Below, one piece after another: positions 14,410 through 29,932 of a stretch of 32,034 nucleotides of DNA. The translations under genes were made by a program, and so were the position numbers. Position 1 is the stretch's first letter. The number at the start of each line of letters is the position of its first letter. Source of the stretch: Squatina squatina (lineage: Eukaryota); the NCBI GenBank assembly GCA_031763465.1, contig JARFOE010000001.1, positions 20,258,906-20,290,939 of the forward strand. The letters are read 5' to 3'. Under the pieces are notes generated by a model, which saw nothing but the letters and a program-made list of their open reading frames with translations, was not told the origin of the DNA and did no database searches.

Positions 14410-15295
14410 GATATATTTTTAAAAATGGGATCCTAACGAAGTGGTAGGAGCTGCAAAAAGGCAGTACAAGAAAAAACTTGTGAGGGATAGCGAGGACAAC
14501 AACATTTTACAAGTATATTAAGAGAAAAAGGGAGACTAAGAGTAATGTGAACCCCTTAAAGATCGACACAGGTGATAATGAAATTGAAAATCAGGAAATG
14601 GTAGACAGACTAAATAATTACCTTGTGTCAGTCTTTAGACAGTAGAGAATGAGGATAATGTACTAGAGATACAAGGTAAAGTAAAAGCAAATCAAAGGGA
14701 GGAATTTACTAGATTTAATATAAGTAAAAACATGGTAATGGAGAAAATAATGAGACTAAAGCTAGACTAATCTCCAGGACCTGATGGTTTCCATTGCAGA
14801 GTATTAAAAGAGGTAGATGAGGAAATTGTAAATGCTTTAGTCATGATCTTCCAAAACTCTCTCGATTCAGGAATTGTCTCCGTGGAGTGGAGAATTGCCA
14901 ATGTTACTCCACTAATTAAGAAGGATAAGAGAGATAAACTAGGAAATTATACGCGTATTAGTCTAACATCTGTTGCAGGGAAGTCACTTGAATCTATTAT
15001 TCGGGACCGAGCGACTGAGCACTTGGACAAACATGAGCTGATCAGAGAGCCAGCATGGATTTGTAAAAGGTAAGTCATGTCTAACGCACCTAGTTGAATT
15101 GTTTGAGGCGTTAACTAACATGGTAGATAAGGAAGAGTCTATGCGTGTTGTTTATATGGACTTTCAGAAGGTATTTGGCAAGGTCCTGCATTAATTATCT
15201 CCAATTCCATGAGAGCACATGGAATTGGAGGCATCCTATTGACACAGGTAGGGAATTAGTTAAGAGGTGGGAGACAGAGAGTAAGGATAATGAAT
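14410..15295 (+). mobile_element. CR1 LINE ORF2 fragment (linker plus reverse transcriptase), inactive
   Basis: SPGPDGFH.RVLKE...WRIANVTPLIKK...GNYTRISLTSVAGK...QHGFVKGKSCLT...VYMDFQKVF, with stops and frameshifts. Confidence 0.92.
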
Positions 15296-16189: not shown

Positions 16190-16574
16190 ATTTAGTGCCT
16201 TAGTACAGTGAAATGATTTGTCACTTTTAATTTTTTTTTAATTCAAGTTGAACAGTTGAGCCAAATGTTTTCTAACATAAGCATCTACACAAAACAAATT
16301 AACGCTCTCGTATGCTTTCAAAAATTTGGAAANNNNNNNNNNNNNNNNNNNNNNNNNNNNNNNNNNNNNNNNNNNNNNNNNNNNNNNNNNNNNNNNNNNN
16401 NNNNNNNNNNNNNNNNNNNNNNNNNNNNNNNNTTTCACAAACCTATGACTGCTGAGACTGTAATATTTTTTCTGGGAAGACCTGCGTCATAAGAGAGCAG
16501 GAGATCCATAAATATTTCTGCTGCTGTCCCCGACGAGTTATATGTGTGCAAGACTCAAGTGAAAAAAGAAAGCC

Positions 16575-16986
16575 ATGACCCGTTTAACAGCGCTGCCCAA
16601 GGACGACATCACCAAACTACCTCAATCTCAGGTGTGGACCGGCAGCAAGCCGGATGAGGAGAAAATCGAGCTGCCGGAGCCTCCCAGGAGGTCCTCGGTC
16701 CGGCTGATCATGCACAGCCTGGTGATGTTTGGAAGGGAGTTCTGCTACGCCGCAGAAGGGGCTTTCGTGACCCCGGTGCTGCTAAGTGTCGGGCTCCCGA
16801 GCAGCCTCTACAGTGTGGTATGGCTCATCAGCCCCACTCTGGGCTTCATCCTGCAACCCATCGTCGGCTCCGCCAGCGACTACTGCCGGTCCAAGTGGGG
16901 CAGGAGGAGACCCTACATCTTGGCCATCGGGGTCCTGCTGGTGCTGGGGATGACCCTGTTTCTGAACGGAGAAGCCTTGGTAACAG
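16575..16986 (+). CDS. SLC45A2: Membrane-associated transporter protein (MATP) exon 1
   Basis: [17 protein letters not shown]...[11 protein letters not shown]...[23 protein letters not shown]; 412 nt, ends in phase 1 at CAG|gcaagt. Confidence 0.95.
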
Positions 16987-17362
16987 GCAAGTAGCATTCT
17001 TCGAAACTTTATAATACGAACATTGGTAGAACTGTGCGAGGGTCAGAGATATGGAACCGCAGCCTTGTCTCAAACCACTCTCACAAAACTTTTAAACCTT
17101 AATATTTCACGTTATTCTCACGGGCTCAAAAGTCTCGCTTTTAGTAGTCCAAAACAACATTAATTTCTCACTAACGATATCCGCGGTTGAATAGTAAATA
17201 CAGAAAGTGTTAACGGTAAATATTGCTTACACTTGTTAATTTTCCTTCAAAAGGGTGCAGGAATACATGAAAATGTGCACTGCAGATCTACACATTAAAA
17301 TAACAACTCAAATGTTGAAGAACCTCCTTAAGACTAATGATCTGATTTAAAATTTATTTCAG

Positions 17363-20801: not shown

Positions 20802-21845
20802 GAAGAACCGAATAACACATGTGACATGAATAGCTTTCTAGTGTCAGAAACCATAATCTTAACTGTATCCAATAACTATGCGCTTATACCAGAGCAGCTG
20901 GCCAGTAAAATATAGCTGTGACCTCACAGCAGCTGTATATGTACACTGTCCAACTATACCAGTTGTAATCAGAATATGGCCATGGGGTCATTTGAGGTAC
21001 ATCTCCCATTTATCTCTAGCCCTTTAGCAAACTTGTTTGCTCCATGTGCCTTTAGAGCTCCATTATTGACCTGCCAGCCTATGCTATACTGACTGAGCTG
21101 GCATTTAATGCTGTTTGCTTCCTTTTTCCATATTCTTCAATGCTGTAAGGAAAGAGCACTATTTGAGCTGGCATGTAGCACGAGTAANNNNNNNNNNNNN
21201 NNNNNNNNNNNNNNNNNNNNNNNNNNNNNNNNNNNNNNNNNNNNNNNNNNNNNNNNNNNNNNNNNNNNNNNNNNNNNNNNNNNNNNNCGAAACCAATGCT
21301 TCCAAGGTACAATATTGTTACTTTTTTTAAAAAAAAACAAAAGCTGGAGTGCCTTATTTCGTTGGTTTTGATGCTGTATACTAAAGGAGTTGTACTTGGC
21401 CTCGACCCGATTTCTGGTACTATTTCACAATAGTTTCACAAAATATGATTTGTGTTCACTTTCAGTAGGTTTTGACTGGTAGTTTTGCTATTAATTCGGA
21501 CCCAGTGCGCGGATATCCGCTGCTCGGCTGATTTCGTGTCGATAAATTGACCGGACAAGCAGATCTTTGGAAAAGGGAATCTTGCCCCTGAAGTAACTTT
21601 TGGTGTTGGGAATTGGCAGTGCTGCAGTTTGAACGGCATATCGATTAACGAAAACGGTAACCTCGTCTTCATAAACAATTGGACTAGAGTGGCAAAACGC
21701 TAACAACTAGCATTTGTGAGTTAACAGGTGTAAAATTAAACCGACGCACACTTACACCAAATGATCCCTTTACACTGATTTTAGAAACACAAAATATCGT
21801 CCCTCTGGAAAAACAGAGCAATTTAGCCGTCCCACTCAGAGACTT

Positions 21846-22115
21846 CTAATACCGGCGGTCCACAGAGTTGGCGGGCAAGATGTCATATCGACCATTGTAC
21901 ATCACAACCCCTGGCGGGTAGTACAAAATCTCTGGCGGCACGGGGTTGATCTGAATTATGGCATGTCTCTGATCATCTTGCTCTTGCTTGGTGGTGGCTG
22001 TGAAGGGGCGCATGTGTATAATGGTTGGGGAGGTTATCCTCCAAAACATGCCCTTCAACGCCTTCCTAAACTCCCTCCTCATCAGGCAGTACAGGATAGG
22101 GTTCAGGCAGCTGTT
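21846..22115 (-). CDS. RXFP3: Relaxin-3 receptor RXFP3, end of TM7 and C-terminal tail to the stop codon
   Basis: [28 protein letters not shown]....MRPFTATTK...[17 protein letters not shown] matches the RXFP3-specific tail; syntenic position and strand. Confidence 0.9.
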
Positions 22116-22459
22116 GGTGTAGCCCAGGGCGATGCAGAAGTGCCAGGCCACAGCCGCAAAGAGGGTGGCCGGGATCTTCACCAGGGCCCGCAGGATGACA
22201 TAGATGTGGATGGGCGTCCAGCAGATGATAAAGACGGCCACCACCACCAGGACCATCCGGGTGATGCGCCGGAGGTTCCTGTCCTTCTCCTTCGAGCCGG
22301 ACAGCATACGGACGCTCTTCAGGCGCAGGATCATCAGGCCATAGCACACGGTGATGATCAGGACCGGCATCACGAAGGCGAAGATGAAGACACAGATCCT
22401 CAGGAGGTTGTCCCAGTACCAGGAAGGGTGCGGGAATTTCAACGTGCAATCTGTTACTC
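22116..22459 (-). CDS. OPRM1: Mu-opioid-receptor-like exon 3 (ECL2 Cys to TM7), in frame with the RXFP3 tail
   Basis: caattttag|GA GTA ACA GAT TGC, a phase-1 acceptor at the opioid exon 3 position; [40 protein letters not shown] and [13 protein letters not shown] are mu-type. Confidence 0.85.
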
Positions 22460-22547
22460 CTAAAATTGAACGTGCGGGCAGGAGAAAAGCAGAAACAGTT
22501 GAATAGTTGGCCTAGTGCATAAACGGGCTTGTAGACAAACACACCAA

Positions 22548-22620
22548 CAATGAATGGTGGAGCAGACTTGAGGCGCCGAATGGCCTACTCCTGCTCCTAA
22601 TACATCTGTTCTTTTGTTCA
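22548..22620 (+). mobile_element. CR1 LINE 3' tail remnant
   Basis: tgaatggtggagcagacttgagg..ccgaatggcctactcctgctccta followed by tgttc repeats. Confidence 0.65.
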
Positions 22621-23582
22621 TCCCGCCTGAAACCATGTGACCTCCTGGGAGATGCAGAATTCCTGATCTACAACCAGGCCAATTTAGGGGAAAAAAATCT
22701 GGGCAATTCCTCCCTTAACCCCTCATCGATTGAAATTAGCCTAGGAGATCACTCTGGCACTAATAATGGCCCTGAAATTGAGATCGGAGGCTTCCTGCAA
22801 GTGGAGGCCTCCGATCGCAAAAATCTCTATGAACTTACCTGACAGCCTGGGATCCACGTAAACTTCCTGTCTTCTGCCCCCACAGTTGGGCATGTGCAGT
22901 GGGGCTGTGCTGTGTCGCCTCCAAGTCGTTCGGAGAGACTGGAGAGGTCACATGGGAGGCCCCAACCAATCAGGTAGGAGTATCTCTCATTCAAGCTTTG
23001 ACAGANNNNNNNNNNNNNNNNNNNNNNNNNNNNNNNNNNNNNNNNNNNNNNNNNNNNNNNNNNNNNNNNNNNNNNNNNNNNNNNNNNNNNNNNNNNNNNN
23101 NNNNNCCCAGTATAAATTCCGACCATAGGGGACCTACATTTGTCTTCACTAATCTTTTTCTTTTTACTTACTTGTAAAAGCTTTTACAGTCCGCTTTTAT
23201 GTTCTAGTGGGTTATTGTGCAGAAAAAAAACAATGGGCACCCTTGCATCTTGTGATTGCTGTGTAATGACTGGAGATATGGAGAGCTACATCATGTAAGA
23301 TTTTGTGAATTGAAGTGAATCACTACTGCCGTCACACATGAGATGTAGCTGTCAATGCAAATTATATCTTCATATTTCCACAATAGCTGTGACTATTTGT
23401 TCAAACCCACAAGCTATTCTTAATACTTTAATCCATTAATCAATGAAGCAGCTTACATGGCGGCCTGCCTTTCAGGATGCTATTGTTGGGTTGCATCTAG
23501 GATACAAAACACCCACATGCACGATATCCACCTTAATCAGCCTGTGCTCTGGCTCTAATTAACATTTTGAAGCCTGCCTTAA

Positions 23583-24148
23583 CTTTTGGATCTGGTACAG
23601 GCCGAGCCAGAACTGGCCAGAGCCGTTCTGATCTGGAAACTTCAGCAGGCAGAACTCCTCGTTGGAGAAGGTAGAGGTTGTGGAGAAAACGGCGTGGGGA
23701 ATGGTAGCCAAGATCGCAGAAATCCAGATCAGGACACTCAGCCATCTGGCGGAGCAGCCGGGAAATCTCCTCTTGGGCTTCAGTGCCGACGCCACTGACC
23801 AATACCTCGCAATGCTCATGGCGGTCAGGAAGAACACGCTGGCGTACATGTTCATGACCGTCACCGAGGAGACAAGCTTGCACATGACCTTCCCGAAGGG
23901 CCAGCTGAAGTCCAAAGCGGTGTCCACCGCCCAGAAGGGAAGGGTCAGGACGAACTGAAAATCGGTCACTGCCAGACTGGTCACGAACAGGTTAATCGAA
24001 GATTTCTTCCAGCCTTGCCTGCTCTTCATGAGGTAGAGCACCAGCACGTTGCCAACCAGCCCCAGAGCGCAGACCACCGAGTAAACGATGGAGATGGTGA
24101 TGCGCACGGCGGCGGACCCGTCTCCAATGATGCCCTGCTCATCCACGT
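23583..24148 (-). CDS. RXFP3: RXFP3 TM1-TM4 and ECL2; N-terminus in gap, 3' end truncated
   Basis: VVCALGLVGNVLVLYLMKSRQGWKKSSINLFVT...TDFQFVLTLPFWAV...MNMYASVFFLTAMS.ARY.SVASALK...FWLGLYQIQK, then homology ends and a stop follows at 23559. Confidence 0.93.
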
Positions 24149-26272: not shown

Positions 26273-26479
26273 AGCATTCGCAATAAGGTAGATGAATCAA
26301 CAGCGCAAATAGATGTAAATGGGTATGATATAGTTGCTATTATGGAGACATGGCTGCAGGTTGATCAAGGCTGGGAACTAAATATCGACATTTAGGAAGG
26401 AGAGGCAAAAAGGGAAAGGAGGTGGGGTGGCGTTGTTAGTAAAGGATGAAATCAGTGCAATAGTGAGAAAGGATATTGG
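26273..26479 (+). mobile_element. CR1 LINE endonuclease-domain fragment
   Basis: SIRNKVDE...YDIVAIMETWL...KGKGGGVALLVK, APE endonuclease motifs with a frameshift. Confidence 0.85.
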
Positions 26480-27377
26480 NNNNNNNNNNNNNNNNNNNNN
26501 NNNNNNNNNNNNNNNNNNNNNNNNNNNNNNNNNNNNNNNNNNNNNNNNNNNNNNNNNNNNNNNNNNNNNNNNNNNNNNNNNNNNNNNNNNNNNNNNNNNN
26601 NNNNNNNNNNNNNNNNNNNNNNNNNNNNNNNNNNNNNNNNNNNNNNNNNNNNNNNNNNNNNNNNNNNNNNNNNNNNNNNNNNNNNNNNNNNNNNNNNNNN
26701 NNNNNNNNNNNNNNNNNNNNNNNNNNNNNNNNNNNNNNNNNNNNNNNNNNNNNNNNNNNNNNNNNNNNNNNNNNNNNNNNNNNNNNNNNNNNNNNNNNNN
26801 NNNNNNNNNNNNNNNNNNNNNNNNNNNNNNNNNNNNNNNNNNNNNNNNNNNNNNNNNNNNNNNNNNNNNNNNNNNNNNNNNNNNNNNNNNNNNNNNNNNN
26901 NNNNNNNNNNNNNNNNNNNNNNNNNNNNNNNNNNNNNNNNNNNNNNNNNNNNNNNNNNNNNNNNNNNNNNNNNNNNNNNNNNNNNNNNNNNNNNNNNNNN
27001 NNNNNNNNNNNNNNNNNNNNNNNNNNNNNNNNNNNNNNNNNNNNNNNNNNNNNNNNNNNNNNNNNNNNNNNNNNNNNNNNNNNNNNNNNNNNNNNNNNNN
27101 NNNNNNNNNNNNNNNNNNNNNNNNNNNNNNNNNNNNNNNNNNNNNNNNNNNNNNNNNNNNNNNNNNNNNNNNNNNNNNNNNNNNNNNNNNNNNNNNNNNN
27201 NNNNNNNNNNNNNNNNNNNNNNNNNNNNNNNNNNNNNNNNNNNNNNNNNNNNNNNNNNNNNNNNNNNNNNNNNNNNNNNNNNNNNNNNNNNNNNNNAGAT
27301 GTAATTGTGAGTGACACCTTACCTCTCTTGAGAGAGGACTGACAGCAATTTTGACGGTATCCTATTATTAAAGTGTC

Positions 27378-29232: not shown

Positions 29233-29410
29233 GAAAGGGGGTTGCACAAGAGACAATAGCTGGCGGAAACTATTATGAGAAATTTATTGGTTTGGGCTGC
29301 CTGTCATTGCAGCATATGTCATTGATAGACTCACTTTACAAACGATCGTACCAAAATGCTAATGTACTATTGATTTGTCTGTCTAAGTTTACATTCTCTT
29401 CTGTTTACAG

Positions 29411-29655
29411 GTTACGTAGATGTGGGTCTGATTCCTGAAGGAGCACGAGATATCTGGGTGGAAGAGATAGCTGAAGCAGGGAATTTCTTGGCCTTAAGAA
29501 GTGAAGACCCAGAGAAATATTTCCTCAATGGAGGGTTTATTATCCAGTGGAATGGAGACTATAATGCAGCAGGAACAACATTTAAGTATGAAAGAAATGG
29601 GAACCTGGAAAATCTAACTGCTCCAGGCCCTACAAAAGAACCTGTTTGGATTCAG
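29411..29655 (+). CDS. ADAMTS12: ADAMTS12 spacer-domain exon
   Basis: tttacag|GT TAC...ATT CAG|gtaatt; 245 nt; [14 protein letters not shown]...[26 protein letters not shown]...[10 protein letters not shown]. Confidence 0.96.
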
Positions 29656-29932
29656 GTAATTCATGCATCAGAAATCTAGAGAATGTTCCATTTTTGTTAT
29701 TATGCAAAAGGTATTTATATTCCTTTCATTTTGTATTTAACGTGCTGGACTATGTTTATCAAATGGGTTTTAAGTATATAAAAGAATTTTAATTAAGGGC
29801 CCATTTAAGTTGTTCATTGAAACACATCAATCAGTGGTATATACCCATGGGCGCAGATAAAATCCTGGTTAGAAATACTGTCTCAAAATTCCACCCACAT
29901 CTGCAAACAATTTTTTTGTATTGAATTATGCA

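Follow-up and report, generated by a model that had tools for sequence, protein, structure and literature searches.

The window, a 32,034-nt stretch of the Squatina squatina assembly, carries parts of two receptor genes on its minus strand: exon 3 of a mu-opioid receptor (OPRM1) runs in a single open frame into the C-terminal tail of RXFP3. The flanking exons have the Pfam domains CoA_transf_3, MFS_2, ADAMTS_spacer1 and TSP1_ADAMTS, and we take the genes to which they belong to be AMACR, SLC45A2 and ADAMTS12. With the genes named in this way, these domains agree with the placement of the RXFP3 locus between SLC45A2 and ADAMTS12 in the original prediction. The features of the window are as follows.

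16563–16991, plus strand: MFS transporter exon of an SLC45A2-like flanking gene (Pfam MFS_2)
21846–22097, minus strand: end of TM7, helix 8, C-terminal tail and stop of RXFP3 (tail 71/80 identical to shark RXFP3 P0121)
22098–22120, minus strand: crossover interval in the TM7 motif (Y/H)TNSCLNP, 23 nt, or 32 nt (reaching 22089) should Ile/Val not be diagnostic
22121–22459, minus strand: OPRM1 exon 3, from ECL2 to TM7, up to the first base of the Tyr codon of GYT (105/111 identity to shark OPRM1)
22460–23005, minus strand: intron 5' of the opioid exon, with an AG acceptor; high-copy repeats at about 22551–22599 and 22761–23005
23006–23105, no strand: 100-N scaffold gap, with no evidence for the adjacency of its two sides
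23106–23579, minus strand: non-coding DNA joined to the RXFP3 5' half; repeat at 23117–23204, single-copy in the assembly at 23205–23579
23580–24148, minus strand: RXFP3 5' half, from TM1 to the start of TM5 (93% identical to shark RXFP3; best PDB match relaxin-3 receptor 1)
29374–29676, plus strand: ADAMTS spacer exon of an ADAMTS12-like flanking gene (Pfam ADAMTS_spacer1)

Retrotransposon remnants, picked by eye, lie at 14771–15070 and 26382–26480 (plus strand); from their motifs, we take them to be reverse-transcriptase-like and endonuclease-like.

The chimeric reading frame

A pyrimidine tract and an AG at 22461–22460 precede a phase-1 exon start at 22459, from which the frame is open and free of N through a TAG at 21848–21846. 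Residues 2–112 are identical to sawshark OPRM1 (P0001) at 105/111 positions and to horn shark RXFP3 (P0121) at only 37/111, whereas the residues after NP are identical to P0121 at 74/83 positions and to OPRM1 at 7/83. This two-part pattern is far beyond chance. The best PDB matches are mu receptors for the front and relaxin-3 receptor 1 over the tail, and the proteins closest to the frame are shark proteins. Each half is an ordinary gene. The in-frame chimera with its phase-1 acceptor is therefore present in the assembly as first described, with both halves named correctly and with NSCLNPILY at 22115–22089. The C-terminal end had been given as GRYD*; the frame actually ends in [15 protein letters not shown].

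Where does one gene give way to the other? Mu-diagnostic bases run to 22121; from 22097 (Ile) the sequence is likely RXFP3, and from 22088 (Cys) it is certainly so. The codon map thus places the switch in the TM7 motif common to both genes, where the original prediction had put it. Among the best 120 mu matches fetched, GYT precedes NSCLNP in all 120, VLY follows in 119, and A(F/Y)LD comes next in all 120, as expected from the AFLDENF-type continuation first named as normal for OPRM1. The motif is found in 118 of the best 120 RXFP3 matches fetched, with AH(S/T/C) before it and CL(M/L/T)R after it. The OPRM1 hallmark NPVLY-AFLDENF is absent from the window, which reads [12 protein letters not shown]. 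Native RXFP3 had been expected to read LAHSNSCLNP upstream of the switch. All eight aligned chondrichthyan RXFP3 proteins have LAHTNSCLNP instead, so the possible crossover begins at 22120. The shared stretch, first estimated at about 19–29 nt, is revised to 23 nt if counted as far as the Ile/Val codon, or 32 nt if the Cys/Ala codon is taken as its limit.

The motif is common to both genes at the protein level and the codons are compatible, and the native arms could share the stretch as DNA. Twenty-two nucleotides of the junction occur once in the assembly, and two RXFP3/4-like paralogues come within one mismatch of this 22-mer. A rough codon-usage prior, based on small counts, puts exact 22-nt identity for this gene pair at ~1%. 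Because any switch inside a shared motif, real or artificial, would leave the frame intact, the open frame cannot be taken as a sign of selection.

The opioid part

The opioid exon was placed in a tree of 12 rows; four further chosen proteins, including both shark delta rows, had been dropped because the cutting pattern failed on them. The exon groups with the mu rows on a short branch with moderate support (83/85), and its nearest row is sawshark mu, at 95%. An opioid exon elsewhere in the same assembly (L002) falls with the kappa rows. The exon in the window is of mu type rather than delta, kappa or NOP; a delta or kappa identity is rejected on the PDB matches and the grouping with mu. A retrocopy origin is likewise excluded, as both the intron and its acceptor are present.

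What has become of the rest of OPRM1? No other opioid exon, exons 1 and 2 included, was found in the 232 kb surrounding the window (43% N), and no mu exon 2 was found among the 150 of 224 candidates scored in the assembly. Indeed, three opioid exon 3s are present in the assembly but only one partial exon 2 was found, which means that much coding sequence is simply absent. A search of the assembly also failed to find the OPRM1 tail (the AFLDENF continuation) or the middle of RXFP3 (TM5–TM7). These missing native continuations weigh little, because the assembly lacks most opioid exon 2s.

The TM5–TM7 regions of the shark mu (22459–22098), kappa-like (L002) and NOP-like (L003) genes are each on one exon. 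In tetrapod OPRM1, TM5–TM7 also lie in one exon, and the teleost mu gene has three exons, merged in amphibians, according to PMC8534031. The single-exon arrangement in the shark fits better with a gain of introns in teleosts. In the NOP-like exon (C162:4410560-4411021), NSSLNHVLY replaces the NPxxY motif directly past a run of six N, and this may be a sequence error.

Two breaks in RXFP3

The switch in TM7 is not the only break. The 5' half of RXFP3 stops abruptly after GLYQIQK(L) at 23580, inside an N-free piece, a break on which the original prediction was silent. From there the sequence is non-coding; it closes with a repeat next to the 100-N gap, and the repeat across that gap belongs to another family. 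About 94 codons (~280 nt, or 282 nt by count), covering TM5–TM7, are missing after this half, such that the RXFP3 reading frame is interrupted by both the break and the missing segment; the N-terminus falls in a gap. We take RXFP3 to be normally intronless. The paralogue L004 is one frame, and term look-ups in PMC3310001 and PMC9027355 returned no passage on RXFP3 exon structure. The gene is orthologous at both ends and distinct from its RXFP3/4 paralogues. For example, the tail is identical to those of four RXFP3/4-like paralogues from the same assembly at only 17–23 of 80 positions. Further RXFP3/RXFP4-like genes in the assembly are L004, L009, L012, L013 and L085, with one full length (C974938). 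Searched at the DNA level for a further copy, the two pieces matched only repeats and RXFP3/4-like paralogues. The 18 nt before the 23580 break have one further match with one mismatch, in the middle of a piece, which is at chance level (control 1).

These two breaks invite a different reading, in which a real and recent rearrangement replaced ~280 nt of RXFP3 with an OPRM1 intron and most of exon 3 (at least 1.4 kb). The TM7 microhomology would have served as the 3' anchor, with a non-homologous join at 23580, and the change would be specific to the lineage or to the individual. This scheme is very improbable. A single event would cover both breaks, whose distance in the scaffold is 1459 nt against the 282 nt that RXFP3 requires; the single-copy DNA at 23205–23579 could be OPRM1 intron; and the native RXFP3 middle and OPRM1 tail, as noted, were not found in the assembly. 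However, a 100-N gap separates the two pieces, and the absences mean little where most opioid exon 2s are missing. Moreover, neither half of RXFP3 has decayed. If the rearrangement were real, it would have knocked out an RXFP3 allele and left a hybrid exon with no known upstream exon.

The comparison with related species that the original prediction had proposed yielded no second instance. Among the 360 opioid and RXFP3 relatives fetched (the 120 best from each of three lists of 961, 882 and 314 matches), not one combines the opioid ICL3 with the RXFP3 helix-8 motif, a result that also speaks against a real rearrangement. Of the matches fetched, a shark mu receptor of ordinary form scores highest against the whole hybrid frame (66% coverage), and full-length RXFP3 and OPRM1 exist in sharks, rays and a chimaera. 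No report of an OPRM1–RXFP3 hybrid was found in the literature at the level of titles and the beginnings of abstracts. Overall, recombination between the two receptor families, offered at first as an alternative to an artefact, gained no positive support.

Read data come from one public run (X1), in the form of contigs with a word share of 0.07, which is possibly the source data of the assembly. Over 21290–24148, the one single-copy contig from this run covers only 22394–22565, at a depth of 2.6 and with one difference, so that the intron–exon border is contiguous there. Neither junction is covered.

Breaks in other receptor genes

How often do receptor genes in this assembly run into foreign DNA? 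The assembly consists of 1.15 million contigs, and the 232 kb around the window alone comprise 113 N-free pieces with a median length of 935 nt. A control scan by profile search took in 127 N-free GPCR-bearing pieces from the match lists, with 76 kb aligned, and flagged each frame whose homology ended >30 nt inside a piece. It flagged 31 ends, most of which are exon borders, long third loops, stops or frameshifts. Outside the window, eight of 125 pieces pass into unrelated DNA where no good splice site is present: L093 (CysLT1-like), L097, L107, L112 (AT2-like), L156 (GPR15-like), L168, L188 and L189, all judged by eye, in receptor genes that we assume to be intronless. In L093, a mediocre GT lies ~15 nt beyond the loss of homology, and a further break, in L019, is doubtful. 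Only two of the eight foreign flanks match repeats in the DNA searched. Switches from GPCR coding sequence into foreign DNA thus occur about once per 10 kb in this assembly, a rate that counts against reading the break in the window as a real rearrangement. It was on the side of an artefact that the original prediction had come down, and this preference is now backed by the eight abrupt switches, two of them on near-matches of 24–25 nt.

These two cases illustrate how such joins can arise. In L097 (C79), a high-copy repeat at 1432–1640 enters a GPCR in frame on a 25-nt stretch of which 23/25 are shared; the repeat, which we take to be LINE-like, has no Pfam match, and this is likely another false join. 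In L107 (C192), a chemokine-receptor-like piece at 1840–2120 carries a 34-nt foreign end, and its true continuation lies in the next piece, with an overlap of 24 nt and one mismatch. Both illustrate the mechanism of a misjoin, and the control joins tolerate one or two mismatches. A related arrangement is seen in L005 (C230:5967684-5971088), where two somatostatin-receptor-like paralogue pieces stand side by side across a 100-N gap and one of them begins at an exact 26-nt stretch common to its paralogue. No second switch between receptor families was seen by eye among the full-length GPCR frames listed, and none of the eight control breaks is a GPCR-to-GPCR switch.

A scan for overlaps across gaps gave five matches (four gaps) in 213 gaps, compared with 0–2 when partners were shuffled, the informative cases being few. 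Exact overlaps across 100-N gaps are mostly 0–5 nt; 3/133 reach 12, 15 and 20 nt, with none longer, and in a further 71 gaps the maximum is 5 nt. Long overlaps are too few to fix the word size of the assembler. Other receptor frames show an in-frame stop (L105), a frameshift (L178) and a stop in the third loop (L187), in genes that we take to be GPR35/55-like, adrenergic-like and serotonin-receptor-like, respectively; these defects would be errors or pseudogenes.

A very probable misjoin at the shared TM7 motif

There is strong reason to read the OPRM1–RXFP3 hybrid as an assembly misjoin, in which two separate ordinary genes were very probably fused at their shared TM7 motif. It is favored by the passage of further receptor genes of this assembly into unrelated DNA, and the undegraded state of the opioid front, the RXFP3 tail and the stranded 5' half counts for it as well. 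The animal itself probably has no such hybrid in its genome. Sequencing coverage would have been thin, with coverage holes over both the RXFP3 middle and the last part of OPRM1 exon 3. The path leaving OPRM1 and the path entering the RXFP3 tail would share an identical or nearly identical 23–32 nt, encoding (Y/H)TNSCLNP(V/I)LY. With nothing left of the true arms but short dead ends at most, the assembler would have linked the arms that survived, and since both genes read the stretch as the same motif in an identical codon phase, the frame would have been kept. Scaffolding then likely used the RXFP3 end of the contig to assign it to the RXFP3 locus. At 23580, on the far side of the RXFP3 hole, the sequence would likewise have been extended into foreign DNA. 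Although neither native continuation was found in the assembly, both genes would be whole in the animal and have the stretch in common.

Some observations stand against a misjoin. First, the prior for exact 22-nt identity is low, as given above, though the control joins accept one or two mismatches and many GPCR pairs exist. Second, two false joins ~280 nt apart in one gene are required where a single replacement would cover both; the two joins are not independent, however, because both border the same hole. Third, run X1 has no contig over either junction, and the control breaks, none of which joins one receptor to another, were judged by eye.

Could the false join have been made at the bench? 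A chimeric library molecule, produced by a PCR template switch between GC-rich motifs, would have to be the sole read path across the hole, which is extremely unlikely. The crossover does lie in homologous sequence, and at the X1 depth in this region (X1 perhaps not being the source data) one molecule could decide the path. Nothing separates such a molecule from a graph join in the window itself, but forks at shared 24–26-nt stretches elsewhere point to the assembly step. On this alternative the hybrid is still an artefact, but one of library preparation and not of the assembly step.

A last alternative is that the hybrid is expressed, with the RXFP3 5' half spliced to the opioid exon to give a receptor with RXFP3 TM1–4, mu TM5–7 and an RXFP3 tail. 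In its favor, the RXFP3 half breaks off near ECL2/TM5, and the opioid exon, which is on the same strand and has a canonical acceptor, begins in ECL2. However, the frame stays open from just two phase-1 GT sites, 23977 and 23737; these match four and three of nine donor positions, respectively, under the donor consensus that we assumed for scoring, and their use would delete TM2–4 or TM4. A phase-1 GT at 23563 gives no open frame. No route to a full hybrid receptor transcript is visible among the donor sites of the RXFP3 5' half, and from the sequence such a transcript would be scarcely credible.

Implications and comparison with known systems

What are the implications of the join? As an artefact, it shows that joining at a conserved motif leaves the frame intact and so mimics a gene fusion. 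Hence, fusions, truncations and gene losses inferred from this assembly require read support, and the truncations of L093, L112, L156, L168, L188 and L189 should not be taken as gene loss. If the hybrid were real, it would have two further consequences. First, GPCR families whose divergence predates jawed vertebrates could exchange sequence through a motif as short as the one in the NPxxY region. Second, the hybrid would provide a natural test of the role of helix 8 and the tail on an opioid receptor core.

RXFP3 has AMACR-like, SLC45A2-like and ADAMTS exons as neighbors, in keeping with the human order (AMACR, SLC45A2, RXFP3, ADAMTS12), whereas the copy in the window lacks ~94 codons and has two abrupt breaks. 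The front of the chimera is mu-type with a phase-1 acceptor, as is OPRM1 exon 3, and like tetrapod OPRM1 it has TM5–TM7 on one exon, but it continues with CLMRREF instead of A(F/Y)LD.

Natural tail variants of OPRM1 arise when exon 3 is spliced to alternative exons, as described in PMC8534031, and engineered swaps are also known, with PDB entry 9wsv being a mu/vasopressin V2 construct. The chimera shares with these splice variants and swaps a mu core carrying another tail. Unlike in the natural variants, the switch here falls within TM7 without a splice site, helix 8 is replaced as well, and the donor gene is unrelated.

Low-coverage short-read assemblies yield chimeric contigs. The join in the window differs from such contigs in being in frame between two GPCR families, which is true of none of the eight control breaks. 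It resembles them in joining at a short shared stretch, in the loss of the true arms, and in the kindred joins of L097 and L107.
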